The notes below the pieces were generated by a model. It saw only the letters and a program-made list of their open reading frames with translations, was not told where the DNA came from and made no database searches. Of a stretch of 64,000 nt of DNA, positions 5,285 through 63,835 are shown one piece after another. The stretch's first letter is position 1; each line of letters opens with the position of its first letter. This DNA comes from Tubulanus polymorphus (Eukaryota; Animalia; Nemertea), in the NCBI RefSeq assembly GCF_964204645.1, contig NC_134029.1:13542850-13606849 (forward strand), read 5' to 3'. The translations under genes were made by a program, and so were the position numbers.

Positions 5285-5375
5285 GCTTCGAATAATTGGA
5301 AAATGACGTTTTCAGGCCAGAGGACAAGAGGACGACACATCACTCATCACCACAAGTAATTTTCCCCCCTGATAA

Positions 5376-5705
5376 ATGGGAGATAGAAAAGCATTCTTAG
5401 CGACAATAAATAACAGAATAAAACCAGCAAAAAAACAATTTGAAATAAAAAAGTTAGTCGATGTTACAAAAGAAATTGAACATAAAATATTAAAATTAGA
5501 AAAGATAAGAACTAAATATGGAGATAAAATATCAGCAAATTTAAGTTACTGTTACGTTAGTACAACGCGAGAATTTAAAGTATTTTTACCTGATAAATGG
5601 GTTTCATTGAGTAATGAGGAATTAAAAGATTTAGAAGGATTTAAAATAATCTATCATGGAAAAAAATGAAGACGGTCATCATGATTTAGAAATTGTTGAC
5701 TTAAT
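5376..5705 (+). pseudogene. Small conserved Polinton protein (TKYG..FLP motif; possibly OB-fold/SSB-like)
   Basis: RTKYGDKI..FKVFLPDKW; homologous to 63443-63787 (NKYGDKL..FRTYLPDRF); frameshift in the A-run at ~5665. Confidence 0.55.
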
Positions 5706-7086
5706 AAAAAAACAAAAATAAATGAAACTAGAAAATTAATTTTAATAAATTAATTGACGCCTGCGAAAAAAAATGTAGAATTTCTGGGATAAGCTAATGT
5801 AAAATTGCAAATTTGAAATCGAAGTTTTAAGAAATTTGGGGAGTTATGAGTTTTGGCGATTGGGTAGATGATACAGGTCTTCGACTGGTCTAATAAAAAA
5901 AAAATTGTCAACTTGTGGCCGACTATGATTCACTTTTGCCGCAAAGCTGGCTTGCAACTTCATTGCAACTTCATGGTTGAAGAAAGAGCTCTTCTGAGGT
6001 CTGCTTCATCATGACTTCGAGCGTATCGTGTAGCCAGCCGGCCCGGTCCACGGGGCCCGGTTTGGTTGTCACTCGATATCCTAGTCTTGAGTCTGGGTCG
6101 AAGTAGACATTGTCATTTGAATTACTTATTCATGTTAATCTGTATGAATTACCCATGTGTCTTGTATTTCCTTATTCTAAAATGTGTAACTTTATTGAAT
6201 TTGGGAATTTTATCCCGGAATTCCATTGTATTAAGGATCAATAAAGAATCGAATTGAAGTCACCTAATACACATGCCATCAGTGGATGTGGAGCCGTATA
6301 TGACAGCTATGCTATAATAAATTGCTAATCTCATGAAACCTGCATACCCCTAATATCGAAAATATTTTCTAAAACATTTGAATATTGAAATTATATGTTT
6401 ACACGTATCTATATTGACCGCTTGTAGCCGCCGATGAAATTCACGTCGGCCCACATAGATCGTAGATAGCTTCGTCATTCCACCAGCATCCCCATGTAAG
6501 GGTCTGACTTTATATCAGACTTCCAAATCGTGTATACATCCGCCATTTAACCGAATAATCCGATTTACTTATCATTTCTATATATGCCTGCCACTTCTGA
6601 TATAATCATACATCCTTTACTATAACAATACGTCTTCTCATGATATGCTATGCAATATAACATTTTGACGTTCAAATAGAGGTCATTATATAATCACAGG
6701 AAGCCATTCTACATAGTTGTCAATAATATTTTGTCAAAATAGCTTGTATGTGTACACATATACTTGTGACGTTTTGCACATCGATTAACGGTTGTCGTTT
6801 GAAAAATGACGCTGAATGGTTAAAATTGTTTAGGTTTCATAATGGTAACGTGTTATAAGGCGTCAAAAAAAATAAAAAAATAAATTAATGAAAATAAAAT
6901 AATGAAAAAAATAAAAATAATGAATAACTAGAATCCGAAATGACTTATATGGACAATTTAATTGCTACGCGTAGATAGACAAAAGTAGTGAGATATTCAA
7001 CTAATTAAAAATAAAATTATTTTTTTGCTTTTTTTCTAGAATATGAATCCATTTTTTATTGTGAATTTTGGAATTTCACAAGTATT

Positions 7087-7410
7087 TTAATTTTTAATAG
7101 TAGTAGTTTCAGAATTATTAACAACACAAATTTTATTTGATTTTTTATACCAACTACATCCAATCAAAATGAATAAAATTACAAATCCAGTTGTAAAACA
7201 TAAATACTTATCAACTATTCTATTATTAGAAGGAGTAGAAATAACAATATTTTCACCATTATTATTAACATTTTCATTATTTATTTTTTCTTTGCATGCT
7301 TTTTTGAATTCTTTTGATTTAATTCCTAATTGCCGAAACCATTCAATTTGTTTTTGTGTTCTCGGTTTTTTCTTCGCAGTTAATTCCTTCAATTCTTCCA
7401 CTTCGCTCAT
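7087..7410 (-). CDS. Basic N-terminal, single-TM hypothetical viral protein
   Basis: KKKPRTQKQIEW..LGIKS plus hydrophobic segment; homolog of 54450-54818. Confidence 0.65.
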   Translation of the reverse strand: MSEVEELKELTAKKKPRTQKQIEWFRQLGIKSKEFKKACKEKINNENVNNNGENIVISTPSNNRIVDKYLCFTTGFVILFILIGCSWYKKSNKICVVNNSETTTIKN

Positions 7411-7955
7411 TTATTATAGAAAAAGAGAAATTTTTACTTTCAATATTTGAAAATGTTATCACTTTAGTTGATAATAATGTCATAAATCCACCTAATTGAA
7501 ATGATAAATATCCAATCCATTTATTTAATTCAGTCATAACTAAATAATCATTTTTTAAATCGGAATATAATCTATTTTCATCTTCAATTGGTAGCATATA
7601 ATTACATAATTTACTATAACCATTTATACTACATTTTCTGATATCGCATCATTAATTCTAGCTATTCTCGCAGTTTCATAAATCTTAAATAATTTCGTCT
7701 GAATTCATTGTATCTAATTCATCATAAGTTAAATTTTTACTAATGAAACTTTTACATTTTCCGGATGCTATTGTTATTTCTAAGTGATGTTTGCAATAAA
7801 GATAATATTCATAATTATTATTTGTAGTAATATCATTTAAAGCACCATTATTATCTGGTGTTAATTTTGTTTCTGTTAATTTAGCTAAATCATCCAAAGT
7901 TTTTTCGATTGGAACATCACTATTTTTAGATTTTATTTTCTTTTCACCTCCAATT
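7403..7955 (-). pseudogene. Conserved hypothetical viral protein, frameshifted
   Basis: YEYYLYCKHHLE and LYSDLKNDYLVMTEL; homolog of 53849-54457. Confidence 0.75.
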
Positions 7956-7960
7956 TTTAT

Positions 7961-8859
7961 AACAAAACAAGAGCCCCAAGGGGCACTATGGCCAGCCTGT
8001 CAGATTTTCATAAAATGGCAACTGATGATGCATTCTATGGGTAAAATATGCCAAAATACACTCCCAGCTCAGAGTCAATATCTAATAATTTACACCATAC
8101 AATCGTAGAATACAAAATTAGCACAGACAGCGACTGGATCTGGCAGGAAAAAATACCTCAGATAAATCTTTTCCCTTGGTCTTATTGATTTTAATGCGGA
8201 ATAAAATTGAATTTTCAGAAATTTGCTCAATAAAACAAAATTGAATTGGATTTGATGTTTTTATTCGTTCAATAAAGTAAAATTGAATTGGATTTGACAT
8301 TTTTGTGCAGAATAAAATTTGATTGAATTTGTAGTTTGAGCACTTGGCTAATTTGCATATCAAGGTCATCTATCCGATTTGAAAAAAAGCAATTTTTCCC
8401 GGACTTTGTACAATGGTCAATGATATTTTCTGTAGTGCTAATAAAGATATTCCTCCCAAAAACCAAATTAACTAAAAGCTTTCACAGAAATCGATCTTGA
8501 AATACAATTTTAGATCTTAAGATAAAACCCGGAAGTAAAACGGTAGACGATACCGCGGGTTCACGTGAACACCTGCTGATTTCTAAGCCAATCATAGAGG
8601 AGTCTTTGCTTTCTGATTGGCTTTTCAAAACCAATATTTTTGCGATCAGATATTCGCGAAAAAGCCCATATAAATTTCAACGAGGCCCTCTTTCAAAATT
8701 CAGCTACGTAGAGTTTGGAAAATTGATAATGCTTTAATGAATGATCTGTATGAATATATGCCCAGTTGCACATTCAAAGAGCCTTTGCTCTGGAAACCAT
8801 GTCATTTAAATTCGCTCTATTTGTATAGTAATAGGCTCAGCCTACGGCTGGCCTAAAAA
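7961..8859 (+). mobile_element. HINE/Helentron-like non-autonomous insertion within copy B
   Basis: Starts AACAAAACAAGAG, ends with stem-loop AGGCTCAGCCTACGGCTGGCCT followed by an A-run; higher GC than the viral flanks. Confidence 0.55.
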
Positions 8860-8924
8860 TTACTTGTGTTGTTGCAACTAGAATTCAACTAGAATTTAAC
8901 TTAAAATAAACGAGATTAACAAGC

Positions 8925-9536
8925 TAGTTGAAATTAAATAAATTCATATTTAACTGGGAGTTGTAATCGAAATAGTAATTTTGATCTTTTATTATTTTTC
9001 AATTTATCCATATATTCAATATCTAAATCATGTGAAATAATATCATTTTCCTCAAGTGCATTTTTCATTGATTTCCTATCTTTATTGTAGAATAATACTA
9101 AAAATCTAATGTTTTCTCTAAAATCTTTAACAATTGAATTGTATTTTTGATTTAAAACCCACGTTATATTTCCAAAATGTCTACCAGAAAAAGCTAAATA
9201 ACATAATTCACTTTCTCTAACTTTTGAATCATGTAAATTAGCACAATCATGTATAATGAATAATGTTTTTGTTCCTTTATAAATATCAATTGCTATTTTA
9301 ATACAATTATCTAAATTTTCTTTAACTGTTTTAGGATCTAATACAATAAATTTATAATATTTCTATCATAAGTTTGATTAAATTCATACGTTGGGCAGAA
9401 TAATACTATATTATCAAAATAGTTTTTATAAACAGTTTCTAATAAATTGAATATTTAATAAGTTTTTCCACAATTTGTTACACCAGAAATTAACATATTA
9501 TGAGGTTCAAATATCAATAATTCCTTATTTATTCAT
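8925..9536 (-). pseudogene. Genome-packaging ATPase (A32/FtsK-HerA-like)
   Basis: Walker A GVTNCGKT, degenerate Walker B, LAFSGRHFG; homolog of 55908-56519. Confidence 0.88.
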
Positions 9537-9673
9537 ACATATTTAATTTTACTTGATAATATCCATTGGCGCGATATATATTTTGCAAAAGAATAAGCAA
9601 CCGAACTCTCAGGGTTATAATATAAATATCTTAAATATTGTTCTTTAGTATTATGAGTTTTTTTATCCCCCAT
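9533..9673 (-). pseudogene. Integrase remnant: N- and C-termini joined in frame by an internal deletion (46 aa)
   Basis: MGDKKTHNTKEQYLRYLYYNPESSVAYS-FAKYISRQ-WILSSKIKYV*; compare copy D start KEQYLRELYYNPESEVSYS and end EWILSSKFKRINE. Confidence 0.8.
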
Positions 9674-9695
9674 TTATATAACTTTAATTTTAACT

Positions 9696-10958
9696 TTATT
9701 TTCCTAATATTGAATATATTAATTGAGAATTTATAATATTTAATTGCGCGTCAGATAAAATATAAATATGCATTTTATGATTTAAACCTCCTTTTTTTCT
9801 TTTTCAAGAATAATTGTATTCCATCTTTTGTATTTTGAAATTTTTTTTCTCCCAGAACCATGTAATAAGTTATCTTCACTTGTTCTAAAATCTAACCATA
9901 ATGCATATTTATTTCCGATATAATAATCAATTTGATTAATATTACAATCTTCAGATGATTTTATTTTTTCATTTAAAAAATGTTTTTTTAATATCTACCC
10001 ATTGATTTATCATTCTCATTCCCTGACAAAATATTTTATTTGCTATACCTTCAATTGTTATTTATATTTTTGATATTTCAGGATTATAATAATTATCTAC
10101 TTTTAGTGCACCATTAGAATATGTTGCAATGGTAAAAAATATTAATATACCTTTAATAGATCTTCTTGGGAAGTTAATATTCTCATTAATTATTTCATCA
10201 TTTGCATTAATAGTTACAGTTTTAATTTTATCAATATAATCATATAATAATGAAAATCCTTGATTACATTGAGTTTGAATTGTGTTAGCAATATTTTCAT
10301 CAGTTACTGTGTCATACTCTAAACATTTATTTGATTATTTATATTTAACCCATATCTTTAACAACGCTAGATAATACAATTTCATTAACAGGAGCAAATG
10401 TTACTTCGAATATAGTATTTTCTTGAATTGCATATTTATATAAAGGTGCATTATTATTTATCAATTCAAAGTCTAATGGAATTAGATATTTGCATCCATA
10501 AACCTTTTTTTATTAAATTATCTACGTCATTAGTTACTACTGCATTATGCGCTTCAGATCTTAATTTATTTTGGTTTTCTGATTGGATGCCTTGAAATAT
10601 CATATTTCTATTTTCTTTTGTTAACCATAAATCTTTATAATGCGTAAATAAATTATAATCATCTAATGAAAAAACTGATTCTGGTCCAATCTTTATAATT
10701 ATTTTTTAATTAAATATCTTCCAACATTATCTACATTATCTCGACATAATTATTATTATTACCAGTTACTTTTATATCAGCTGATAAATAAATACTATTT
10801 GGAACATAAAAATTATTTTGTGTAACTTGAGGAATTCTAACATATAAAGTTTCATCAGGATTTATATTAGATGGATTATGAGTATGATGAGATCTTTCTG
10901 CTTTAATTGCATTAGATATTCAAGAATTCTTAGAATGATTTATATAACTCCCACTCAT
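9696..10958 (-). pseudogene. Major capsid protein (double jelly-roll type, inferred)
   Basis: Full-length homolog of 18056-19302 with frameshifts. Confidence 0.75.
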
Positions 10959-10979
10959 TTATTTAAAAAAACAATTACT

Positions 10980-12390
10980 TATTTATTTTTCATCATATTC
11001 ACTAATTCAAAAAAAACAACTGTAATTAAAAATAAAATAATATGTTCAGCAGCAAAACTAATGTGATTTTCAGCAGACTTTAAAACAAATTTAACAATTA
11101 ACGCAATAATTCCAGGTTAAGCTGCAGCAGATTTTTTAGATAGTTCCCATAAATATTTTACTAATTTTTTCAAACCATCTTTAACTTTATTTTGTATAGA
11201 ATTATTATCATTTGGTGGTTTAGGACTTGGTGTAGATTTTAAAGAATTCGATATTGCTAAACCTATTGTTGTAAAAACCATAGTTACAGCTGTTAGAATT
11301 GAAAGAATTGGTATATCTTCTAGTTTAAATAATAATTCTATTCTTTCTTGCAATGATATTTCAGAATCTGGTTTTATCAACGAATTTTTAAAAATAACTT
11401 TTAATCTATTAATATTATTAGCATATTTTTTCATTAATTCATTTTTTTTCTTTTTCCTGTACTTCTAAATTATTTTTTACATTATCAATTTCTTTTTCTA
11501 AATATGCATTTCTTTTTTTAAATTCATTTTCTTCAATATTTTTATTATTTCTATCTAACTTTAATTGTTCTAATTCTTCATTTGCTTTAGATAATTTATC
11601 TTCTAAAGATTTAATTTTTGATTTCTTATCATTCTATCGTATGCAATTTTATCAGATGGAAGTTTTACACCTTTAATATATCTAATTTCTTCATCAGAAA
11701 ATATATTTAAATCTTCTATTCTTGATCTTTTGCATCAAGTAACCCATTTTGTAAAAGTTTTTTTTTCAGTTTGAACTTCGGTTGATTAAAGTTTACTAGT
11801 TTTGGAAGTTATATTCTGTTCAGAAGTTGTTTCTGTTTCTGAATTATTATTGATTATCTTTTTAAATTCATCATTTCTTCGATTAAATTCTCTTTTATTT
11901 AGAATTACCTCTTGTTCTGTAATATAAGTTATAACATCATAATTGATTTTATTAATTCTAGGTAATTCTATTTTAGGATTTGTTATTATTTTATCATAAC
12001 TTTTATTAGAAGATAACTTAAAATAATAGTCATCTTTCAAATGCCAATAAAAATCTCCATTTGGTTCTTTCAAATCTTTTACTAGATAATTCATACCTTT
12101 ATCAGTTATATTGAGCCCAGGATTTTTTAATATTGGTTTAAACTTTTCAATTAATTCTTCATATTCTAATTCTTTTTTATTAAATCTGGATTTTCATTTT
12201 CAATATCCAATCTTGAACGTGCTTTATTACCATATTCATTAGTATCAGGTCTTGCTGAATTAGAATTATATGCTGTTTCATTATCGTTACTAAAACTTGT
12301 TTCACTAAATTTGGGTTGTGGTTCATCGGTAATTCGAGATTCATCGAAAGTACCCATATCATAATCTTCTACACCTTCGATTAATATAAT
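10980..12390 (-). pseudogene. Coiled-coil protein with C-terminal hydrophobic/amphipathic helices (putative membrane-active virion protein)
   Basis: SILTAVTMVFTTIGLAIS..KKLVKYLWELSKKSAAA; homologs at 17380-18035, 41500-42322, 58305-60035. Confidence 0.7.
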
Positions 12391-12399
12391 AAAAAAATT

Positions 12400-13565
12400 A
12401 AAATTTGAAATATAATATTCCTCCTATTACAATTCCTATACAAGTTATAGCTAATTTAGTATTTTCATGTGATTTATTATCATTATTAGTTTTAATTATA
12501 TCATGCTGGATATTATCAGTTTTTATATTTTCTGATGTATTGTAATCACCTTCCACCTTCACCTTAGTTTTGAAGCAGAAATAATTCTTTTACTTATATC
12601 ATTTAATCCAAACTTATTATTTATTGTTGCACTTTTAATTAAATTATTGTAACCAATTATATTTCCCCTTTTGTAATATTTAATCATCAGAAATAATTAT
12701 TATCTAGGGCCTATACAATAATAAAACCTAATATGTGATTCATCTAAATAATTTTGACATCTTACTATATTTTCTGGAATCGATAATTATTTTTACCATA
12801 ATGAATAGAATCTTCAAATAAAACTTTAAATTGTTTCTGTGCATCAAATTAAGTATTATCATTTCCTATTGGTGATCTTGTTTCAACCTGTGATCCTAAT
12901 ATACAAATCAAATATATTCTAATGGATGATTTATTCTTTGTATTCCAGACTTGGTAAATCCTTTACTATCTTCTAAAATTTTCCCAACCATTATTATTTT
13001 GTTGTTGTGTATTATTATAATATTTTGGTAATTCATTCCAATTTAGTGTTCTTACATCTGAATTTGTTATTATTTTACCAAATTCTTTAGTATATAAAAT
13101 TCCTAATCCACCCATTGTACCAATTTTTTGCTCTAAAATCATTATTTTGAATTATTATTAAATTCATTACATATTTTATAAAACTTAGAAAAATTAATAT
13201 TAATTTAAGAAGTCTAAAAAGTGATAGTATTAATGGTAAACTTGGTTTATTTAAATGATCATTCCAACTTATACCACACCCTTGTTGCGCAATAAACTGC
13301 AAAATTTAATTGGTCCTGCCAATACTTCATATAAGATTTTAATAACCATTGTTTTGCCTCATTTAAATTTTCAAAATTAATTGTATATACATTAAATATA
13401 TTTTCCATTTTAACAATCAAATTATTAGTTTCAGTAATATTAAATATCTCAATTAATTAATGAATTTAAAAGTAAATTTTTATATGAAATATTTTTGTAA
13501 AAATAAATTGCTGGCATATTATATTTAATTGATTTATTATATTGGAAAGCTTTTGGAAACCCCAT
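12400..13565 (-). pseudogene. Conserved hypothetical viral protein with C-terminal TM
   Basis: MGFPKAFQY.., YWQDQLNFAVYC, GCGISWNDH, CILGSQVETRS; homolog of 60052-61356. Confidence 0.7.
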
Positions 13566-13585
13566 TTATATAATAAAAAAAATTA

Positions 13586-14006
13586 ATAATTTATTAATTC
13601 TTTTAATAATTTATCTTGTTTTTCAATTGTTATATTACCATTTAAACTAATAATATAAGCTTGTGTATTTTTCAATTTATTAACTTCATTTATATAAGAT
13701 TTAATTTTTCTTTATTACTTTTTATATTTAATTTTGAAGTTATTCCGGTTAATACACTTGAACTTAAACCTAAAACGCCAATTGATATAGCTAAAGGTGT
13801 TAATGGACTGAATATTGCTAAAAATGTTATCACCGAACTAATTGTAACTGAACCACTAATAATAAAATATATATTTTATATATTATAAAATATTTTTTCT
13901 TTTTAATTTTTAAATCATTTTCAAATTCTAATATTTGTTTTTCTAAATATATTTTTAATTTAGTTTTATTTATATCATGAGGAATAATATTAACACCATC
14001 TTCCAT
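13586..14006 (-). pseudogene. Coiled-coil/TM hypothetical viral protein
   Basis: MEDGVNIIPHDINKTKLKIYLEKQI..FLAIFSPLTPLAISIGVLG; homolog of 61376-61779. Confidence 0.6.
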
Positions 14007-14011
14007 TTATA

Positions 14012-14439
14012 TTATGAAAAATTAGTAAATTTATATGCTACAAATATAAAAATAATTGTTCCACCTAAAATCCAAATTATTTCATATTGTAGTTGTTCTT
14101 TACTTGGGGTATAATAATCTGATAATTTCGGTTTATATAGATGTAATTTTTCACGATTTGTTACTGCGTTACATAAACTCATAGCATCATCAACTGGCTT
14201 AAAATCTCTATGAGAAATATTTTGGTTATATAATTCTTTATTAATATAATCCATATAATTATGTCTCTTTTCTCTATATTCTTCTGCAGCTTTATTATAT
14301 TTCTCTAATGCTAAGTAATGTCTTTTTTGTTCTGATAATGAACCATTTTTATGAATATGTTTAAATAAATAACCACCACCTGTAAATGCTAAAGCGTTAA
14401 CAATTGCCGATCCTATAATGGTTATAACTTCAGATGCAT
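14012..14439 (-). pseudogene. Membrane protein (AIVNALAFTGGGYLF / EQKRH motif)
   Basis: Homolog of intact 61798-62217. Confidence 0.7.
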
Positions 14440-14454
14440 TTTATTTAATAAAAT

Positions 14455-15050
14455 AATTACGCATTAATAAGAGGAATATATTTTTGTTTTTTCCAAATAA
14501 TCAATTGTTAAATTAGATAGAGTAACTGCTAACGTTAATTTTAAAATATCATTGATATAGAATTTATCAACATTAATACTTCCCATTTTAAATACTTTTT
14601 TATATCATTGTATAACCAACAGTTCCAACTGATAGTAATGCTCCATTATATTAACCAGTTATCATCCACTTCTGATCCGCCATTTATTTAGAAAAAAATT
14701 ACTATCTTCAAAATATTTAGTTATCTTATCTATAATTATTTCAACATTTATAATATTATTAGTTTCATTTTCATATACTTCAGTTATTATTTTTCTGATA
14801 TCATCAATAATAAAATCTTCATCTACTTCATAACATCTTGAAGAATTTCTAATTAAATCAGTAATCTTTTCTACATCATAAATTCCTTTATCTATTGTTG
14901 TTTCATAATCAAATGTTGTTTCATTGAAAAATGCATATTTTAACAATAACATTTAAAAATGAGTTATAACATCATTAATGTTACATTTCATTTCTTTCTC
15001 ACGTTTAAAATCAAATCCAAAACATATACTCGGTCTTCTGTTATATTCAT
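14455..15050 (-). pseudogene. Two small conserved viral genes (homologs of 62237-62473 and 62470-62817)
   Basis: GALLSVGTVGYTM; CFGFDFKREKEMK..EDFIIDDI..YFEDSNFF. Confidence 0.6.
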
Positions 15051-15075
15051 ATTTATATATATATATAAAAAATTA

Positions 15076-15835
15076 TTACTGTTTACATCTTATAACTAAT
15101 TCATAAATTACAGGAAAATTATTTAAATCATTTAAGTAAAAATTATGATTTCTTAATTCTAATTTAAAATTATTAAATCGTGGAATACAAGGCTTGAAAT
15201 CACATTCAGCTAAATTATAATTCATTGTTTCATGCGTTCCAAACTGTTTAACATTTTTTAATGGTAAAATATTTAATATACTAGAATTACAAATTGTATC
15301 TTTAGTTGCTTCAAATGTTTTTATAGGATCAATTAAATTACAATAAATATAGAATTGTGTGTAAGGTATTAAGTTTGACCTACCTTCTACGCTTGCAGTA
15401 ACAATATTTGTTTTAATTCCTAACATTTTAGCCATTGGTTTGTTTACCATAAATTTATTTTGTTCATTAGCTAATTTTATTCTTATTTTATCAGAACTAT
15501 CAATTTTAACAAATTTAATTTCAAACTTACTTGATGGGCCTATTTCTAAACGAGCTATTTTATTAATTTTTTGCGCTAATGATTCTAAATTACATAATCC
15601 TGGTTTAAGAACTAGATGAAACCATTTACTTTTATTTCTAATATAAATTGCAATACCTCTATGTTCAATAGTTTTATCCGATATATTGTATGAGTTACAT
15701 AAACTAATATTTACTAAATTGAAATCAACATTAATTCTTAAATTCTCTATCTAATTGTACTAGTAAATTATGTGATTTGGAATTTATAAGTTTTCTAGAA
15801 TCAACAAATATTCTATATTCTTTTAATTCAACCAT
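15076..15835 (-). pseudogene. Minor capsid (penton-like) protein
   Basis: N-terminal FVDSRKL..SYNI, C-terminal FYIYCNLID and FPVIYELVI resemble Polinton mCP; frameshifted. Confidence 0.68.
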
Positions 15836-15902
15836 TATTTCTAACGCAAAAAATTACTTCGAACCACTAAAAATTAATTTCTATAAAATTTTCCCTAAAT
15901 AA

Positions 15903-18035: not shown

Positions 18036-18055
18036 TTAATTTTTTTGTTTAATAA

Positions 18056-41497: not shown

Positions 41498-41499
41498 TG

Positions 41500-53589: not shown

Positions 53590-53848
53590 ACAATAGTAGT
53601 GAGATAATCTAAATCCTAATTTAAATAAAAAATATCAAAAAAACAATAACTTCAACAAGCTAGTCAATTCTATTATATTTTTAATATTTTCTTTTGCAAT
53701 TCTTTTCAAAAGAGAATAGTTTATATTTTGAATAGATTCAAATAAAAAAACAATAACTTTAACTAACCTAGTCAATTTAGTATCAATAACTTAACTAGCT
53801 AGTATTAAAATATTATAATATTTTTCTTATTAAATTTCTCTAATATAA

Positions 53849-54457
53849 ATGTCAAAGAAATCGAGTAAGAATAATGCCGGTATTGAAAAAACATTAGATG
53901 ATTTAGGTATTAGTGATAATAAGGATATTCCAACCAAAATTGAAAATAATATTCAAGGTAGTAACAATATTGATTATGAATACTACTTATATTGTAAACA
54001 CCATCTTGAATTACTAATTGCTGGCGGGAAATCTAAAGAGTTTTTAACTAAGACTAGTACTTTTCAAGAACTGGATGCTATGAAACCAGATAAAGTAATA
54101 AAATATTTTAAGATTAATGAAGAAGCTAGATTAGCCCAAATAAATGATTCTATTTCAGATGGTATTGTCAAATGTTATTCTAAGTTATGTAACCGGTTAA
54201 TACCAATTGATGATGAAAATAAATTATATAGTGATTTGAAAAATGACTATTTAGTTATGACTGAATTACAAAAATGGGTTGGTTATGCTTCATTTCAATT
54301 AGGATCGGTTATGACATTAATTTCTACTGGTGTCATAACATTTTCGAACATCAAGCCTATGGAATATAAATCAGGTAAGAACGAAACAGATGTACTACAA
54401 CCAAACGGCGAAACAGAAAATGAATCAGAACAAAAATTAACTAAAATAAATGAGTGA
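53849..54457 (+). CDS. Conserved hypothetical viral protein (202 aa)
   Basis: Intact ORF, TAAATG start, paralog in copy B. Confidence 0.8.
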   Translation: MSKKSSKNNAGIEKTLDDLGISDNKDIPTKIENNIQGSNNIDYEYYLYCKHHLELLIAGGKSKEFLTKTSTFQELDAMKPDKVIKYFKINEEARLAQINDSISDGIVKCYSKLCNRLIPIDDENKLYSDLKNDYLVMTELQKWVGYASFQLGSVMTLISTGVITFSNIKPMEYKSGKNETDVLQPNGETENESEQKLTKINE

Positions 54458-54818
54458 TGATGCCAAGAAGAAGCCTAGATCCGAGAAACAAATTAAAAGG
54501 GCAAGGGAATTAGGTAAAAGATCTGCAGAATTAAAAAAAGCTAAGAAAAAGAAATTAACTGATATAAATGAGTCACAGAAATTATCTGATATTGATTCAA
54601 ATAACAATCCATCTTATTCTTCTAATAGTGGAAGAAATAATTACTTATATATTACAATTGGGTTAATCACAATTATTATATTATCCGGTGTAATATATAA
54701 ATCAAAATTCAAATCTGATGATAAAGATGATTCCAATGATGATAAACCTATTATACCAGAAAATAAGTCAAATCATAAAGCCATTGAAACTAAATCTAAA
54801 TTATTATTAATGAATTAA
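54450..54818 (+). CDS. Basic single-TM hypothetical protein
   Basis: Intact ORF with Lys/Arg-rich N-terminus and hydrophobic YLYITIGLITIIILSGVIY. Confidence 0.75.
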   Translation: MSDDAKKKPRSEKQIKRARELGKRSAELKKAKKKKLTDINESQKLSDIDSNNNPSYSSNSGRNNYLYITIGLITIIILSGVIYKSKFKSDDKDDSNDDKPIIPENKSNHKAIETKSKLLLMN

Positions 54819-54824
54819 AATAAG

Positions 54825-55915
54825 ATGAAAAAAGAACAATATTTAAGAGAGTTATATTATAACCCAGAAAGTGAAGTATCATATTCTAGCGTTTCAGAAT
54901 TATGGGATAAAATTAAATCTGATAAAGAAAATGGTAATATAAAATATAGTGAATTAAAATCATGGTTACAAAATCAACCAACATATCAAATCCACAAGAA
55001 AATGGATAAAACTTATTTAACAAAAAGGTTATGGTTTCATATATTGATCAACAATGGCAAGCAGATTTAATTGACGTGAAGAACTTAGAAGAATACAACA
55101 AAGGATATTTCTGGATATTAAATGTTATAGATATATTCAGTAGATACGCATGGTCAATTCCAATCAAAAATAAAACTGGTATAGAAGTGACAAATGCTTT
55201 TAAATCAATATTTAAAGAAGCTATTCCAGATAAGATACAATTTGATGAAGGTAAAGAATTCTATAATAAACATTTTTAAAAACTATTATCTGATAACGAT
55301 GTAGATTATTTTTCAACACATTCAGATAAAAAAGCATCTATTATAGAAAGATTTAATAAAACATTGAAAACTAGAATGTGGAAATATTTTACTGCTAATG
55401 AAACATATAACTATATCGATGTGTTAGATGATTTGGTGAAAGGTTATAATAATTCTAAACATAGTTCTATAAATATGAAACCTATACAAGCTAGAAAAGA
55501 AGATAATTCAGAAATAGTTTGGAATAATTTATATGGCGCGTTTGTTACACATGATTTCGGTGAACCTAAATTTAAAATTGGACAACACGTAAGAATATCT
55601 AAATATAGAAAAACATTTTATAAAGGTTATACCCCTAATTTTACTGAAGAAATATTCAAGATTAAAAAGATAATATTAACTAAACCTTTTGTTTATAAAT
55701 TAGAAGATATAAAAGATGAAGAAATATTAGGTTATTTCTATGAACAAGAATTATCACTTGTACCAAATCCAGATGAAATAGAATACAAAATAGAAAAAGT
55801 ATTGAAAACAAAAACTCTCAAAGGAAAAAAGTGTTCTTTGGTGAAATATAAAGGATACGATGATAAATTTAATGAATGGATTTTATCTAGTAAATTTAAA
55901 AGAATAAATGAATAA
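54825..55915 (+). pseudogene. Polinton retroviral-like integrase (rve) with C-terminal chromodomain, two frameshifts
   Basis: QWQADLID, VIDIFSRYAW, IQFDEGKEF, KASIIERFNKTLK, YNNSKHSSINMKP, KGYTPNFTEEIF, VKYKGYDDKFNEW. Confidence 0.94.
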
Positions 55916-56519
55916 AGATTTATTTATATTTGAACCGCATAATATGTTAATAACTGGGGTAACAAACTGTGGTAAAACACATTTCATATTAGATTTGTTA
56001 GAAACTATTCATAAGAATCATTTTGATAATATAATATCATTCTGTCCTACTTATGAAATGAATAAAACATATAATAGAGATATAGTTAAGATAAAAAAGT
56101 TTATTATATTAGATCCTAAAACAGTAAAAGAAAATTTAGATAATTGTATTAAAATAGCAATTGATATTTATAAAGGATCAAATACATTATTCATTATAGA
56201 TGATTACGCTAATTTACATGATTCAAAAGTGAGAGAAAGTGAGTTATGTTATCTAGCTTTCTCTGGGAGACATTTCGGGATAACAACATGGGTTTTAAAT
56301 CAAAAATATAATTAAATTGTTAAAGACTTTAGGGAGAATATAAGATTTCTGGTTTTATTCTACAATAAAGATAGAAAATCTATGCAACAATCATTGGAAG
56401 AAAATCAAATTATACCTACTGAATTACATGATGAATATATGAATAAATTAAAGAATAATAAAGGTTCAAAATTATTACTGAGGCTTCAATTTCCCTATGA
56501 ATATAAATTTATAAAATAA
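55908..56519 (+). pseudogene. Packaging ATPase (A32-like), premature stop at 56313
   Basis: GVTNCGKT, FIIDD, SGRHFGIT; the frame continues after TAA (IVKDFRENI). Confidence 0.92.
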
Positions 56520-56547
56520 CTATTCATATACCTATGTATTAGATATC

Positions 56548-57252
56548 TTAATCACTTTCATTATAAGACTCTATTTCGTCGTCAAACTCGAACAATTGTT
56601 GGTAATTATGTTTATCTGTAACTATATTTTCATTATCATCTTTCTCTTTCTTGGTGTATAACCTTAATATTACATTTACATCGATTGGTGCTAATATTTT
56701 TTTAGCACCAGATAAATCTAATTCATCTTTACTGAGTTCAGGCTCCTCTGATAAAAATTCCATAAATGAATCTTTATATAATGTTTTACCATCTACGTTT
56801 TTATTTGAAACAAACTTTGTAACATATTTAAATGGATGTTCTATAAATTCTTTTAAACCGACATGTTTTATAACACTAGTAATATGTGAAGCTCTATTCA
56901 TATGATTATTCCAATTTGATGGGGCGTTTGAAAATTCACCATTACAATAACCACAATAATTTTTGTTATCCTTATATTTTAATATTATTTCATTTTTGGG
57001 TGTAGAAGGCATAACATTATTTGATGTAGAAGGTAAAACATTATTACTATCTTCTATTTTAGTTTCAATATTATCTTCTATTTTATATTCAATATCATTC
57101 TTATCTTCTATTTTAGGTTCAATATTATTTTCTTTTTTTGTTTCGATATTCTTATCTATTTTACTTATTCTATATTTAAATTGATTAAAGTATTCTCCAA
57201 AATACTTACTGTATTCATCATAAGGTAATATATAATATATATCTGGTATCAT
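56548..57252 (-). CDS. Hypothetical viral protein with CxxC..H Zn-finger (5' end deleted)
   Basis: YCGYCNGEF..WNNHMNRASH; homolog of 19335-20138. Confidence 0.65.
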   Translation of the reverse strand: MIPDIYYILPYDEYSKYFGEYFNQFKYRISKIDKNIETKKENNIEPKIEDKNDIEYKIEDNIETKIEDSNNVLPSTSNNVMPSTPKNEIILKYKDNKNYCGYCNGEFSNAPSNWNNHMNRASHITSVIKHVGLKEFIEHPFKYVTKFVSNKNVDGKTLYKDSFMEFLSEEPELSKDELDLSGAKKILAPIDVNVILRLYTKKEKDDNENIVTDKHNYQQLFEFDDEIESYNESD

Positions 57253-57253
57253 T

Positions 57254-58286
57254 TTAATCAATTTGATTAATATTACAATTTTCAAATGATTTTACGTTTT
57301 CATTCATAAAATGTTTTCTAATTGATGGCCATTGATCTATCATTCTCATTCCTTGACGAAATATTTTATTTGCTATTCCTTCGATAGTTATATCTACTTT
57401 TGATATTTCAGGATTATAATAATTATCAACTTTTATTGCACCATTAGTATATGTTGCAATGGTAAAAAATGTTAATATACCTTTAATAGATCTTCTTGGG
57501 GAGTTAATATTCTCATTAATTATTTCACCATTTGCATTAATAGTTACAGTTTTAAATTGTTCAATATAATCATATAATAATGAAAATCCTTGGTTGTATT
57601 GAGTTTGAATTATGCTAGCATTATTTTCATCAGTTACTGTATCATATTCCAAACATATATTCGATATTTCATAACCCATATCTTTATTAACGCTAGACAA
57701 TACAATTTCATTAACAGGAGCAAATGTTATTTCGAATATAATATCTTCTTGAATTGCATATTTATACAAAGGCGCATTATTATTTATCAATTCAAAATCT
57801 AATGGAATTTTATATTTGCTTCCATAAATCTTTTTTATCAAATTATCTACAGCATTAGTTACTACTGCATTATTGGCTTCAGATCTTAATCTATTTTGGT
57901 TTTCTGATTGGATGCCTTGAAATATCATATTATTTCTATTTTCTTTTGTTAACCATAAATCTTTATAATACATAAATAAATTATAATTATCTAATGAGAA
58001 AACTGTTTCTGGTCCAATCTTTACAGCTAATTGTTTAATCAAATATCTTCCAACATTATCAACAACATAATTGTTATCATGACCAGTTACTTTTATATCA
58101 GCTGATAAATAAATACTATTTGGGACATAAAAAGTATTTTGTGGGAGTATTTCGAGGGATTCTAACATATAAAGTTTCATCAGGATTAATATTAGAAGGA
58201 TTATGAGTAATTATATGATGAGATCTTTCTGCTTTAATAGCATTAGATATTCTAGAATTCTTAGGACTTATATAACTCCCACTCAT
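57254..58286 (-). pseudogene. Major capsid protein lacking the C-terminal ~70 codons
   Basis: Highly similar to 18056-19302 up to NINQID. Confidence 0.78.
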
Positions 58287-58304
58287 TTATTTAACAAAAA
58301 AATT

Positions 58305-60035
58305 AATCATTTATTTTTTATCATATTCACTAACCCAAAAATAATTGCACTTACAACTGTAATTAAAAATAAAATAATATGTTCATCAGCAAAGTTAATA
58401 ATGTTTCCAGCAGATTTCAATATAAAACCAACAATTGATGCAATAACTCCGGGTTATGCTGCAGCAGATTTTTTAGATAGTTCCCATAAATATTTTGCTA
58501 ATTTTTTTAAACCATCCTTAACTTTATCTTGTATAGAATTATTATCATTTGGGGGTTTATCCGGTTTATTGGGAGTAGGAGTAGATTTCAATGAATTTGA
58601 TATTGCTAAACCAATTGTTGTAAATACCATAGTTACAGCTGTTAGAATTGAAAGAATTGTTATTCCTTCTAGTTTAAATAATAATCTTATTCTGTCTTTC
58701 AATGATATTTTAGTATCTGGTTTTATTATTAAATCTTTAAAAATAACTTTTAATTTTTTAATATGATTAAGATCATATGATTTTAATAATATATCTCTTT
58801 TTCCTGAAATTCTTTGTTGTATTTTAAATCATCTATTTCTTTTTCTAAAGCTAACTTTCTGCTTTCATAATCAGCTTCATCAATTACTTGAAGATCTCTA
58901 ATTAATTCTAATTGTTTTAATTCTTCATTTGCATTAGTTTATTCTTTTTCTAACATGGTTATTTTAGAAAATCTCATTTTAATATTAGCAATTTCACCAG
59001 CTGATTCTTGCATACCTTTAATTTCTCTACGTGCTTGTTCAGGAAATGCTTCTAATTCATCATCAGTTAAATCAAGTAATCCTTTTTCTTGTAAAGATTG
59101 TATTCGATTTATTCCAGTTTCAGCACCGGGTGTATCTAAAACACTAATCATATCTTCTTCAAATGAATTCTTTGTATCCAGTAAGTTATCTAAATGTTTT
59201 CCTAATTGTAATTGACTTGAATCATTATCAATTTGTTGAATATCTCTTCTCGATGTTTCTGGTGTTGAAGATCTTAATTTATCTAATCGATCTCCATACT
59301 CTTCCATTTCTGGATCAACATCAGTAGAATTTGGATTTGGATTTTTAAATGGTGAATATTTGTTAATATCAATATTAGGAATTGGTTCTTCTTCATTAAT
59401 TCTGTCGAGTGCATACCATATAATTCTGAGAAATTCTCTACCGCCTTTTGAACCTTCAATTGTAGATCTTGCTCGCATTTCAGGATGGTACAGATCTTCT
59501 TGTCCCATTTTAGATAATTGAATTGATACAGTTTCGTTATTTAATTCAATTTTATAAAACCATGAATCATTTTTAAATTCTAAATTATTCATGAAAAATG
59601 GAACATCTTTTCTAATTTGTTCTGAAATATCTTCTGGTTCAATGTTATACGTTACATTTTTTGGTAATAATTCTTCAATAACTGTATTTGTTACACTATG
59701 TTTTATCTATAATAATTCTTTTTTCAATACAGGGTTTTCTGTTCTTTCTTATCTATTAATTAAATCTTTTCTTTCTGGTCTAGTTTTAATTATTATCTCA
59801 TCGCGGGTTCTTAAATAATCTATTAATTTTCCACTTGTTACAGTATCATCTTTAAATTCATCATAATCATATAATATAGGCACACTAGAATCATCTTCAC
59901 CTAAATTAGTATTATATGCTGATTCATCATCATTATCGATATTGGTTTCATTAAAATCAGGTTGTGGTTCATCACTTATACCGGGCTGTCACCAAAAGTA
60001 TCCATTGGAATATCTTCTACACCTTCTACATCCAT
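58305..60035 (-). pseudogene. Long coiled-coil protein with C-terminal hydrophobic helices
   Basis: Fragments 58939-59592 and 58454-58702; C-terminus conserved with the other copies. Confidence 0.7.
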
Positions 60036-60051
60036 TTACATAATAAAAAAA

Positions 60052-61356
60052 TTAAAATTTAAAATATAATATTCCTACGATTACAATTCCTATACAAGTT
60101 AAAGCTAATTTAGCATTTTCATGGGATTTATTATCATCATTTAGTTTAATTATTTCATGTTGACTATTATCAGTTTTAATATTTTCTGATGTATTGTAAT
60201 CTTTTATTTTAGAATCATTATCCAATTTAATATTCTTAAGTTTTAGTTTCTGTTGATTGAATATGTTTTTTATTTTTTTCACCTTCCATTAATTTTGGAG
60301 CAGTAATTATCTTTTTATTTATATCATTTAATCCAAATGAATTATTTATTGTTGCAGTTTTAATTAGATTATTATAACCAATTATATCTCCCATCTTTAA
60401 TACTAAATCATTAGAAATAATTAATAGATTAGGACCTATACAATAATTTAATCTTATATGTGATTTATCTAAGTAATTTTGGTATCTTACAATGTTTTCT
60501 GGAATCGATCTATTTTTATCATTATGAATGGAATCTTCAAATAATTCTTTGAATTGTTTCTGCGCATCAAATGAAGTACTATCATTTCCAACTATTGGTG
60601 ATCTTGTTTCAACTTGCGCACCTAAAATACATATCAAATAAGTTCTAATTGATTGACTTATTCTTTGTATGCCCGATTTTGTAAAACCTTCACTATTTTC
60701 TTAAAATAAAATTAATCCAACCATTATTATTATCAATTTTATAATTATGATAAGCTCCAATTCTATGCATATAATCAAATCTTTTTATTTCATACTGTTC
60801 ACCAATACCTTGCAATTTACCATGCGCTCTAAAATCGGAATTAATATTTATATTAAATTCATTACATATTTTATAAAACTTAAGATAGATTAATATTATT
60901 ATCCAATTCCTTAAAATATTTAGATCCGGGCAAAGGACATTCTAATTCATTTAATATTATTCTGATTTGAAAATATGTGTGAAATCTAAATATTGTGTGA
61001 ATTAATTTTAAATCAGAATAATTCAAATTTTTATCTAAGTTATTTAAATGATCATTCCAACTTATACCACAGCCAGTTGTTGCACAATAAACAGCAAAAT
61101 TTAATTGATTCTGCCAATATTTCATATTAGATTTTACTTTATATATATGATATTCATCTCGAGTAAAAGTAACTTCATATGTATTAAATATATTTTCAAT
61201 TTTAGAAATAAAAAACTGTGATTCAGTAATATAAATTTCTAAATTAGTTAATGAATTTAAAACTAAATTTTTATATGTAATATTTTTGTTAAAATCTATT
61301 GCAGGAATATTATATTTAATTGATTTATTATATTGGAAAGCTTTTGGAAACCCCAT
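60052..61356 (-). pseudogene. Conserved hypothetical viral protein with C-terminal TM
   Basis: YWQNQLNFAVYCATTGCGISW..FRFHTYFQ..CILGAQVETRS..FDAQKQF. Confidence 0.75.
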
Positions 61357-61375
61357 TTATATAATAAAAAAATTA

Positions 61376-61779
61376 ATTACTTATTAATTCTTTTAATAAT
61401 TTATCTTGTTCTTCAACTGTAATATTACCATTTAAACTTATTATATAATCTAGTGTATTCTTCAATTTATTAATTTCTTTTATATTAGTTTTAATTTTTT
61501 CTTTATTACTTGTATATTTAATTTTGAACTTATACCGGTTAATACACTTGATGATAATCCTAACACGCCAATTGATATAGCTAAAGGTGTTAATGGACTG
61601 AATATTGCTAGAAATGTTATTACAGAACTAATTGTTAAGAAGTTTACTTTTTAAATACTTTTCTTTTTTATCTTTAAGTCACTTTCAATTTCTAATATTT
61701 GTTTTTCTAAATATGTTTTTAATTTAGTTTTATTTATATCATGAGAAATAATATTAACACCATCAACTTTATCATCCAT
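61376..61779 (-). pseudogene. Coiled-coil/TM hypothetical protein
   Basis: Homolog of 13586-14006. Confidence 0.6.
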
Positions 61780-61797
61780 TTATTTAGCAAAAAATTA

Positions 61798-62217
61798 CTA
61801 ATTAGTAAATTTATAAGCAACAAATATAACAATAACTGTTCCCCCTAAAATCCAAATTATTTCATATTTCTTCTGTTCATTACTTGGGGTATAATAATCT
61901 GATATTGTAGGTTTATGTAGATGTAATTTTTCTTTATTGGTTACTGCGTTATATAAACTCATTGCATCATCAACTGATTGAAAATCTCTATGTGAAATCT
62001 GATTATATAATTCCTTGTTAATATAATCCATATAGTTTTGTCTTTTTTCTCTGTATTCTTCTGCAGCTTTATTATATTTTTCTAATGCTAAGTTATGTCT
62101 TTTTTGTTCTGTTAATGAACCATTTTCATCAATATGTTTAAATAAATAACCACCACCAGTAAATGCTAAAGCGTTAACAATTGCTGATCCTAAAATAGTT
62201 ATAATTGCAGAAGCCAT
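61798..62217 (-). CDS. Membrane protein with N- and C-terminal hydrophobic segments
   Basis: Intact 139-aa ORF: AIVNALAFTGGGYLF, EQKRHNLALEK. Confidence 0.78.
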   Translation of the reverse strand: MASAIITILGSAIVNALAFTGGGYLFKHIDENGSLTEQKRHNLALEKYNKAAEEYREKRQNYMDYINKELYNQISHRDFQSVDDAMSLYNAVTNKEKLHLHKPTISDYYTPSNEQKKYEIIWILGGTVIVIFVAYKFTN

Positions 62218-62236
62218 TTATTTAGCAAAGAAAAAT

Positions 62237-62473
62237 TATGCATGTATATGGGAGGAATATATTTTTGCTTTTCCAAATAATCAATAGTTAAATTAGAAGA
62301 CTCTTTAAAGTAACTGCTAACGTTAATTTTAAAATATCATTTATATCAAATCTATCAACATTAACACTTCCCATCTTAAATACTTTTTTTAATTCCATTG
62401 TATAACCAACAGTTCCAACTGATAAAAATGCTCCATTATATAAACCAGTTATTATCCACTTATTATCACTCAT
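62237..62473 (-). pseudogene. Small hydrophobic viral protein
   Basis: GLYNGAFLSVGTVGYTM..DRFDINDILKL; homolog in copy B. Confidence 0.6.
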
Positions 62474-62817
62474 TTATTTATAAAAAAATTACTATCTTCA
62501 AAATATTTAGTTATCTTATTTATGATTATTTCAACATTTATAGTATTATTAGGTTCATTTTCATATATTTCAGTTATCATTCTTTTAATATCATCAATTA
62601 TAAAATCTTCATCTAATTCATAAAATCTTAAAGACTCGGTAATCTTTTCTACATTAAAAGTTTCTTTATCTATTGTTTTTTCATACTCAAATGTTGTTTC
62701 ATTAGAAAATGCAATATTTTCAATATGTGTTATTACATCATTTATGTTCAATTTCATTTCTTTCTCATGTTTAAAATCAAATCCAAAACATATACTCGAT
62801 CCAACAGTTATATTCAT
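62470..62817 (-). CDS. Acidic hypothetical viral protein (115 aa)
   Basis: Intact ORF; homolog at 14676-15050. Confidence 0.7.
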   Translation of the reverse strand: MNITVGSSICFGFDFKHEKEMKLNINDVITHIENIAFSNETTFEYEKTIDKETFNVEKITESLRFYELDEDFIIDDIKRMITEIYENEPNNTINVEIIINKITKYFEDSNFFINK

Positions 62818-62834
62818 TTATATAGTGAAAAAAT

Positions 62835-63414
62835 TACTCTTTACATCTTATAATTAATTCATAAATTATAGGAAAGTTACTTAAATCAATTAAATAACCA
62901 TCATGATTTCTTATTTCTAATTTAGAAGTGTGAAAAAAGGCATTATATTTGAATTACCATCTACGTTTCCTGTAACAATATCTGGTGCAATTCCTAGCAA
63001 TTTAGCTAATGGTTTTCTCACCATAAATGAAGGTTTACTTTCATCATGTAACTTTATTTTAATTTTATTTGTGCTATCACTTTTTATAAATCTAATTAAA
63101 AATTTATCTTTACTTCTAATTTTCAACCGTGCTCTTCTATTAATTTCTTGAGCTAGTGTTTCTAAATTATATAATCCTGGTTTTAAAATGAGATGAAACC
63201 ATTTATTTATATTTCTAAAATGAATTAAAAAAATATTATGATCAATAGTTTTACTCGATACATCATAAAAAGAATTACATAAACTTACATTTACTAATTT
63301 TAAATCAACACAATTCTTAAATTCTCTATCTAATTCTACTAGTTAATTATGAGATTTATAATTTGTAAGTTTTCTAGAATCAACATGTATTCTATATTCT
63401 TTTAATTCTACCAT
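62835..63414 (-). pseudogene. Minor capsid (penton-like) protein with internal deletion
   Basis: Homolog of 15076-15835 lacking the YIYCNLI segment. Confidence 0.65.
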
Positions 63415-63442
63415 TTATTTTACATATTTTCTTATTCGAAAT

Positions 63443-63787
63443 CTATTTCATGGTGGCCTTTTCCATTCTTACCTTTGTAATTACGAAATAGAAATCGCCT
63501 GAACATAATTCTTCTAAATCTTCACTTGATAATCTATGAAATCTATCAGGTAAATATGTTCTGAATTTATATGTATTTCCGTTTAATCCTTCATATTCTA
63601 AGTGTATAACTAATTTATCTCCATATTTGTTAGTAACTGTAACAACATCTGTAATTAGATGTTTCTTATGGATTGTTAATTCTTTTAACTTCTTAAACTT
63701 ATAATCTACTGATTTGACATTTGAAGTATTTTCTATTCTATCTAGAAATAATTTGTTGTACTCACTGTTTGCTTGTTTACTCTCCAT
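63443..63787 (-). CDS. Small conserved Polinton protein (KYG..LP motif; possibly SSB-like)
   Basis: FKKLKEL..NKYGDKLVIHL..TYLPDRF; divergent homolog of 5376-5705. Confidence 0.6.
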   Translation of the reverse strand: MESKQANSEYNKLFLDRIENTSNVKSVDYKFKKLKELTIHKKHLITDVVTVTNKYGDKLVIHLEYEGLNGNTYKFRTYLPDRFHRLSSEDLEELCSGDFYFVITKVRMEKATMK

Positions 63788-63835
63788 TTATAATACATAT
63801 TTGTATTAAAATTGATTAACACGTTAGAATCCTTT

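Follow-up and report, generated by a model that had tools for sequence, protein, structure and literature searches.

Polintons, also known as Mavericks, integrate into host genomes and usually are taken to be nuclear; whether those of animals live as autonomous nuclear viruses, as transposons, or as parasites of larger viruses is debated. Virophages carry the late promoter of their helper (PMC8547959; PMC6510173). In the account of vaccinia virus given in PMC5294985, late promoters consist of a T-containing core followed, after 5 to 7 bp, by TAAAT(G/A), and the excerpted descriptions in PMC4542343 and PMC6211774 have the poxviral TAAAT overlap the ATG start codon and template a slippage-derived 5′ poly(A) leader. 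Pacmanvirus, as described in part in PMC11788076, uses other motifs. The locus compared here with these systems is a 64,000-nucleotide stretch of the genome of the nemertean Tubulanus polymorphus (contig NC_134029.1, positions 13,542,850 to 13,606,849; hereafter the window, with coordinates counted from its first base), which contains five decayed copies of one Polinton family. Most genes of these copies start at TAAATG, a signal that they share with a single clade of metagenomic relatives. The TAAATG sites are fairly probably poxvirus-type late promoters at which a large DNA virus, acting as helper, would supply the RNA polymerase.

TAAATG starts in the window

All 25 TAAATG starts listed in the preliminary description of this DNA do read TAAATG with the ATG at the given base (8 on the forward strand and 17 on the reverse strand), and one further start that it had missed, at 7410, brings the total to 26. 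These sites had been presented as belonging to nonhomologous genes, which is correct for the 17 gene families that they represent but not for the individual sites, as the element copies are paralogous to each other. The sites at 5376 and 45682 share one terminal-repeat sequence and are not separate observations; the window alone yields 17 independent observations at best. The statement that nearly every gene starts in this way had been drawn from a list that named hits only. With starts set by hand from homology, TAAATG is found at 26 of 33, not counting three homologous positions that have no surviving ATG or a replaced 5′ end; with these three counted as misses, the tally is 26 of 36. In the best-kept copy (copy E), 13 of the 15 homology-fixed starts have the motif, and each of the 17 families has at least one copy with a TAAATG start. 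Among the other ATGs, the motif occurs at 60 of 1,237 in element DNA (4.9%; Fisher p of 2e-26, a value inflated by paralogy) and at 26 of 758 in the nonelement stretch 21300-40400. The motif had also been said usually to follow a T-run, and a run of at least three Ts indeed ends 3 to 9 bases before it at 20 of the 26 sites. The window copies are dead relics, and their motif-less starts likely reflect decay after insertion. Their relatives have long unbroken open reading frames (ORFs).

The motif in related loci

An alignment of 46 capsid proteins led to 37 metagenome loci, 29 of which were scored after leaving out near-duplicates (L002, L013, L024, and L028) and broken or marginal loci (L033 and L035-L037). 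Starts were defined as the first ATG after a stop in nonoverlapping ORFs of at least 100 amino acids (aa) with a closed 5′ end, a rule that cannot miss an in-frame TAAATG start and whose bias was gauged by short ORFs. In 14 loci, TAAATG is found at 49 of 59 long-ORF starts, compared to 77 of 1,291 short-ORF first ATGs and 87 of 2,062 other ATGs of the same loci; in the other 15 loci, it is found at 1 of 73 starts. The core genes are shared with these motif-less loci: for the eight gene families common to both groups, the counts are 31 of 37 starts in the clade versus 0 of 53 outside it.

In a 76-row tree of capsid proteins (from a quick IQ-TREE search, with midpoint root and, as the only support measure, the Shimodaira-Hasegawa-like approximate likelihood ratio test [SH-aLRT]), both window proteins group with the motif loci in a single clade (SH-aLRT of 99, stem of 0.49); 40 of the 58 rows of this clade are proteins without DNA and are unscored. 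All four subclades carry the motif (27/30, 7/9, 12/14, and 3/6 starts), and it persists at 40-44% G+C, where 5 of the 7 starts in L006 and L007 have it. As judged from these sequences, the motif is an inherited property of one Polinton clade.

The nearest relatives outside this clade, L015, L028, and L032 (46-54% capsid identity), have the short ATPase type of the clade but not the motif and could be useful for dating its origin. Another outside relative, L018, encodes a phage T7 tail-fiber-type domain (positions 941-2218; Pfam E value of 1e-11) that is shared by L020-L022 and was not seen in the motif clade. Scans of viral contigs with the capsid, ATPase, and 139-aa family alignments found no relative. 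A contig with 55% G+C from a scan of prokaryote genomes, L038, has three ORFs of at least 80 aa without the motif and was kept out of the counts.

Structure of the start signal

The sequence profile of the starts is bipartite, with A at −18/−17 followed by T at −13/−12 and almost no G or C, then a relaxed segment from −11 to −8, and finally A(−4) T(−3) A A ATG. The spacer between the A-then-T block and TAAAT is mostly 6 to 8 bases long. The −18 to −12 segment is free of G and C at 41 of the 49 starts, compared to 20 of 86 nonstart TAAATG sequences, and a T-run ends 6 to 8 bases before the motif at 29 of the 49 (3 to 8 bases at 35 of them). In both sequence and spacing, this signal fits the vaccinia late promoter, and it precedes nearly every gene, those for the polymerase and the integrase included.

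Ten long-ORF starts of the clade lack TAAATG. Four of them are internal methionines of broken genes, four keep TAAAT with the ATG shifted by 1 to 4 bases, the L004 integrase start deviates from the motif in about one base, and one in L007 is a plain miss. With the four internal methionines set aside, TAAAT lies within 8 bases of 53 of the 55 clade starts. Because the shifted-ATG forms keep TAAAT, the conserved unit is TAAAT rather than a stop codon joined to ATG. Head-to-head gene pairs share spacers of 19 to 30 bases that have TAAATG at both ends and an A-run/T-run core reading alike on both strands. Eukaryotes favor a purine at position −3 of the start context; the clade has T there in 50 of 59 starts, and in AT-rich outside loci that position is A in 12 of 18. 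Given this preference, the T at −3 would be best explained if it were absent from the mRNA.

Assignment to Polintons and organization of the window

Judged by their sequences and predicted folds, the elements in the window are Polintons: they combine an integrase, a packaging ATPase, a protein-primed polymerase, a double-jelly-roll capsid protein, and a recurring terminal sequence. The polymerase gene of copy D (42731-45682, reverse strand) is in pieces. Its part 42731-44705 matches the polymerases of L017 and L022 in tblastn (E values of 2e-41 and 2e-58, respectively), and those of L017 and L018 match the Pfam family DNA_pol_B_2 of protein-primed family B polymerases; the N-terminal part is fragmented and has zinc-finger-like patterns. 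The rve-type integrase exceeds the Pfam cutoff at 55010-55276 and has a chromodomain at its C terminus. The gene at 55908 encodes an A32/FtsK-type packaging ATPase (Pfam Pox_A32, E value of 6e-9). A relative of the capsid protein, P0001, which is 78% identical to the window protein, is predicted to fold as a double jelly roll with a predicted local distance difference test (pLDDT) score of 89, and in a structure search the model matches capsids of large viruses with E values of 1e-18 to 1e-15; in this ranking, the capsids of mavirus and Sputnik come after those of other large viruses, at ∼10% identity.

Copies B and E have one and the same terminal sequence at their left ends on the forward strand, and it recurs beside the polymerase start of copy D on the reverse strand. 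This repeat holds a promoter and the first codons, so that the same sequence opens an OB-fold gene at one end of the element and the polymerase gene at the other. The evidence for the terminal repeat is pooled over the copies, no single copy having both ends inside the window. Polintons have a 6-bp target-site duplication. The family of small OB-fold genes (5376-5669, 63443-63787, and L005:125-469) comes in two diverged versions that are ∼30% alike, and its product is likely a single-stranded-DNA-binding protein (SSB), as suggested by a model of pLDDT 67 with weak best Z scores of 4.8 to 4.9.

An adenain-type (adenovirus-type) protease had no Pfam match among the ORFs of the window, where genes are decayed, or of the relatives, which are partial, and is likely absent from the element. 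The 442-aa family is large (1,372 clusters) and had no match in Atlas; it was tried as a clade-specific factor and ruled out by its presence in outside loci. PDB sequence searches with the capsid, OB-fold, zinc-finger-tail, and 240-aa family alignments gave nothing convincing. Two clade members carry deoxynucleoside kinase genes (L005:10340-10981 and L007:2895-3377), with none in the window, and the search with the kinase pointed to no viral donor.

The AT-rich blocks of the window have 22-27% G+C and the DNA between them 34-44%. In self-BLAST, the blocks resolve into five decayed paralogous copies (A to E) of one Polinton family, ∼71-95% alike over aligned stretches (Table 1). At 85% likeness, the DNA reads of run X5 are ∼400-830 deep over most bins of the element (52145-64000) and ∼6 deep in one bin of the flank (50072-50705). 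If that one flank bin is single copy, the genome would hold, as a rough estimate, on the order of 100 related Polinton copies. Copies B and E have the integrase-ATPase block in opposite orientations, and gene order also varies among the relatives. Polinton gene order thus has been rearranged often, which would be easy if each gene has its own 20-base promoter.

TABLE 1 Polinton copies, termini, and TAAATG start sites in the window (family names such as "442-aa family" are specific to this analysis; "minor-capsid-like" reflects gene position and size)
Feature	Position	Strand	Description	Basis
Copy A, remnant	1099..3209		Minor-capsid-like gene (-), zinc-finger gene (+), polymerase gene end (-)	self-BLAST, tblastn
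Copy B, decayed	5291..16952		Integrase gene internally deleted	self-BLAST, tblastn
Nonelement inserts in copy B	about 5750-7080 and 7960-8930			
Copy C	17373..21214		Capsid gene (+), 240-aa family (+), ATPase (-), integrase end (-)	self-BLAST, Pfam, tblastn
Copy D	40440..45767	-	Capsid gene, 485-aa family, protein-primed polymerase, terminal repeat	
Copy E, best kept	52145..64000		Continues past window edge; (+) terminus, HNH-like gene, 202-aa, 122-aa, integrase, ATPase; (-) 240-aa, capsid, 485-, 442-, 144-, 139-, 61/75-, 126-aa, minor-capsid-like, OB-fold, polymerase end	Pfam, tblastn
Terminal repeat, copy B	5291..5378	+	Built-in promoter and TAAATG (5376) of OB-fold (likely SSB) gene	
Terminal repeat, copy D	45680..45767	-	Identical built-in promoter and TAAATG (45682) of polymerase gene	
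Terminal sequence, copy E	52145..52180	+		
TAAATG 7410	7408..7428	-	122-aa family, copy B; promoter-like site	
TAAATG 9673	9671..9691	-	Integrase remnant start, copy B; without T-run	
TAAATG 10958	10956..10976	-	Capsid, copy B	
TAAATG 13565	13563..13583	-	442-aa family, copy B	
TAAATG 14006	14004..14024	-	144-aa family, copy B	
TAAATG 14683	14681..14701	-	61/75-aa family, copy B	
TAAATG 15903	15885..15905	+	Zinc-finger gene, copy B; head-to-head with minor-capsid-like gene at 15835	
TAAATG 18056	18038..18058	+	Capsid, copy C	
TAAATG 19335	19317..19337	+	240-aa family, copy C	
TAAATG 20985	20983..21003	-	A32-type ATPase, copy C	
TAAATG 42322	42320..42340	-	485-aa family, copy D	
TAAATG 52375	52357..52377	+	HNH-like gene, copy E	
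TAAATG 53849	53831..53851	+	202-aa family, copy E	
TAAATG 54450	54432..54452	+	122-aa family, copy E; within end of preceding gene	
TAAATG 55908	55890..55910	+	A32-type ATPase, copy E; within integrase gene end	
TAAATG 58286	58284..58304	-	Capsid, copy E	
TAAATG 60035	60033..60053	-	485-aa family, copy E	
TAAATG 61356	61354..61374	-	442-aa family, copy E	
TAAATG 61779	61777..61797	-	144-aa family, copy E	
TAAATG 62217	62215..62235	-	139-aa family, copy E	
TAAATG 62473	62471..62491	-	61/75-aa family, copy E	
TAAATG 62817	62815..62835	-	126-aa family, copy E	
TAAATG 63414	63412..63432	-	Minor-capsid-like gene, copy E	
TAAATG 63787	63785..63805	-	Second, diverged OB-fold gene, copy E	

Other features of the window

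Outside the Polinton copies, integrase and DUF5641 pieces were recognized by Pfam at 126-776, presumably the trace of a BEL/Pao retrotransposon, of which such pieces would be typical. They are the main sign in the sequence itself that the host is likely an animal. A different, frameshifted integrase (Pfam rva_4, E value of 1e-32) is located at 27648-28185. Two arrays of ∼145-base units (4087-5195 and 46331-47934) each adjoin a Polinton terminus, and further arrays have a 20-base unit (29565-29724) and a ∼203-base unit (39558-40385). Decayed ORFs at 48500-49700 resemble, by eye and with no Pfam match, the end of a retrotransposon without long terminal repeats and are flanked by a 215-base inverted repeat (45763-45977 and 48301-48515).

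Proposed transcription by a helper virus and alternative explanations

The preliminary description had proposed that such elements are transcribed, in the manner of virophages, by a helper large DNA virus or else by a dedicated factor. The first proposal has gained a promoter whose shape matches that of poxvirus late promoters and that is confined to one clade, with transcription by a helper itself staying conjectural; most of the weight given to it goes to a pox-like helper. In a cell infected by a pox-like virus, the post-replicative transcription machinery of that virus would initiate within the AAA of the motif, and slippage of the viral polymerase on this template would give the element mRNA a nontemplated 5′ poly(A) leader, putting A where the DNA has an unfavorable T at −3. 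The element would then make its capsids and polymerase only during helper infection, and would persist in the germ line by means of its integrase, a way of life like that of mavirus with its giant virus. A late promoter of the asfarvirus type (TATTT followed by TATATA) was also considered and fits worse, with TATATA at −7 to −2 in only 9 of the 49 starts.

Coding DNA provides some weak additional indications. On coding strands of the clade, the word TTTTT[ACG]T is rarer than expected (10 seen versus 34 expected; antisense, 133 versus 144), compared to 13 versus 14 in AT-rich outside loci, and in the coding DNA of L001-L016 and L026, runs of at least five Ts are depleted on the coding strand only, with this word the most affected and T6 at 5 versus 20 expected. 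The deoxynucleoside kinase of two clade members likewise counts as a weak extra for a helper. Splice-donor depletion did not separate the clades.

Several points weigh against transcription by a helper virus. The transcript ends, the poly(A) leader, and the helper itself are as yet predictions. A scan of viral contigs with the full promoter pattern gave 60 loci and no helper candidate: none has the motif at most genes, and none is a Polinton relative. These contigs were selected for a single copy of the pattern, and TAAATG is found at 69 of their 470 other starts (14.7%), the highest count being 4 of 9 starts in one contig and all being far below the 83% of the clade. The helper need not be a poxvirus, since other AT-rich viruses use TAAATG starts too. 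The T-run is absent at 9 of the 49 starts. The motif was gained once, on a single stem of a quick, midpoint-rooted tree, and so cannot be correlated with any other trait. The ∼100 genomic copies must have reached the germ line repeatedly, and the helper must therefore infect such cells. The depletion of T-runs is unspecific, as the mirror word is also down (26 versus 38) and the G+C-rich outside loci show it too; in the portion of PMC7427789 cited here, the vaccinia UUUUUNU signal is inactive on post-replicative transcripts. As a 3′ end signal, TTTTTNT was rejected, being not enriched at gene ends and present at 1 of 12 convergent ends. The AATAAA counts of coding DNA match expectation in the clade (150 versus 153) and in AT-rich outside loci (56 versus 54), which makes this hexamer nondiscriminating as a test of cytoplasmic life.

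There is very little chance that AT-rich DNA, the choice of the first ATG behind a stop, or overlap with the AATAAA poly(A) signal of an upstream gene gave rise to the motif. Such an origin would be in line with the low G+C content of element DNA, with the AATAAA/ATTAAA hexamer that overlaps 21 of the 49 sites, and with an initial list that held hits only, but it is largely refuted by the 6% yield of the same selection on short ORFs, by the counts in equally AT-rich outside loci (1 of 18) and in G+C-richer clade members (21 of 25), by the 28 of 49 sites without the hexamer, and by the head-to-head starts, where no transcript from an upstream gene would need polyadenylation. A role in translation, with the in-frame TAA guarding the ATG from read-through or coupling termination to reinitiation on polycistronic RNAs, appears improbable. 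TAA is in frame directly before ATG by construction, and the genes are tightly packed, some of them overlapping (5 of 32 tandem gaps are negative). However, the TAA is the stop codon of the neighboring gene in only 1 of the 32 tandem cases, and the motif is carried by 11 of 12 head-to-head starts, where the same strand has no gene upstream. TAG or TGA would also do as a guard, and 18 of the 59 real stops are of these kinds, yet positions −3 to −1 read TAA; the variants keep TAAAT with TAA out of frame, and the −18 to −12 block is left unexplained. Stop-start coupling and a lack of enrichment over AT-rich background were two of the findings that the preliminary description had named as speaking against it; coupling is nearly absent, and enrichment over AT-matched background is strong.

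Two further alternatives concern the polymerase. A nuclear promoter special to the clade, at which host RNA polymerase II, with or without a DNA-binding protein of the element, starts at the AAA to make a near-leaderless mRNA, is unlikely; the likeness to poxviruses would then be convergence on a small AT-rich element. It would agree with the customary view of Polintons as nuclear, TATA-binding protein could bind the TATAAA that overlaps the start at 21 of the 49 sites, and clade-restricted genes of unassigned function exist, some with zinc fingers. On the other hand, TATAAA is missing at 28 of the 49 sites, a TATA box flush with the ATG would place the transcription start inside the ORF, and a leader of 2 bases would have to be extended before scanning could work. 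Among the clade-restricted genes, none was found in every one of the four subclades, most loci being partial, and the one folded terminal gene resembles an OB-fold SSB (Z of 4.8, weak). Quite unlikely, too, is a cytoplasmic polymerase that comes from a companion element of plasmid type or from a few rare family members instead of from an infecting virus. The model for this is the linear yeast elements, which, in the account excerpted from PMC6211774, encode a polymerase of their own and start transcription at a TAAAN initiator that gives slippage leaders; the upstream element described there is akin to the early rather than the late promoters of poxviruses. Between them, copies D and E run from terminus to terminus with no room for a large subunit. 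Pfam scans of 77 + 138 ORF pieces of the window and 38 + 96 ORFs of relatives, with NCBIfam on 25, gave no match to a polymerase subunit, a capping enzyme, or a known viral transcription factor, although decayed or very divergent genes could escape. The dedicated factor of the preliminary description thus finds no counterpart among the scanned ORFs, several of the genes being unannotated.

Implications

Transcription of the element by a pox-like helper would have consequences beyond this locus. Full-text literature searches, with most subscription papers outside their coverage, found no paper on TAAATG promoters in Polintons. The analogy suggests that virophage-like wiring, known in protists, extends to a Polinton clade in animals; if so, virophage-like dependence reaches the germ line of animals, and the motif would be a pointer to pox-like viruses, perhaps in hosts from which none is known. 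The promoter distinguishes one clade and is missing from the corresponding genes of its sister clades, a contrast that makes the question of lifestyle directly testable, and with the motif, sequence alone could serve to sort Polinton families quickly by lifestyle. More speculatively, the whole diverse clade (capsids down to ∼50% identity, 20-44% G+C) might consist of endogenous "virophages" of invertebrate poxvirus-like viruses, with every gene on the late promoter of the helper; the ∼100 germ-line copies could then be an inducible antipoxvirus defense, and the motif a fossil marker that predicts undiscovered pox-like viruses. This broader proposal is tentative, and doubts about it outweigh the case for it.

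Comparison with known systems

With the Polintons described as adintoviruses (PMC8502044), the window elements share the protein-primed polymerase, the rve integrase with a chromodomain, the A32-type ATPase, the double-jelly-roll capsid, the inverted terminal sequence, and germ-line copies. Adintoviruses have an adenovirus-type protease, of which none was detected in the window element, and the word "promoter" is absent from PMC8502044. The clade-wide poxvirus-type promoter sets the window clade apart from other Polintons, as the motif is missing in relatives outside the clade that share its core genes. The entomopoxvirus-associated Polinton-like viruses of PMC11296320 are, by the description given there, likewise proposed poxvirus parasites in animals, but they come from occlusion bodies of poxviruses, and a protease is encoded by each of the four; the main text of that paper contains none of the words "promoter," "TAAAT," and "motif." The yeast cytoplasmic virus-like elements pGKL1/2 resemble the window element in being linear and in their TAAAN initiator, which in yeast causes slippage poly(A) leaders, and they differ in encoding their own polymerase, capping enzyme, and helicase and in an initiator that the excerpted part of PMC6211774 does not describe as directly adjoining the ATG.

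The post-replicative (late/intermediate) promoter of poxviruses has the same TAAAT over the ATG, followed by G or A, the same T-rich core, and a spacer near 5-7 bp; in the element, by contrast, such a promoter precedes nearly all genes, including those for the polymerase and the integrase, with no transcription genes detected. Virophages (mavirus with CroV, Sputnik and Guarani with mimivirus) offer the parallel of a small integrating double-jelly-roll virus that uses the late promoter of a larger virus. They are viruses of protists with a TCTA or mimivirus motif and a known helper, whereas the present element is an animal Polinton with a pox-type motif whose helper was not found and whose capsid model is no closer to those of mavirus and Sputnik than to other large-virus capsids. 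The element is accordingly not classified here as a virophage; the proposal is that it may work like one.

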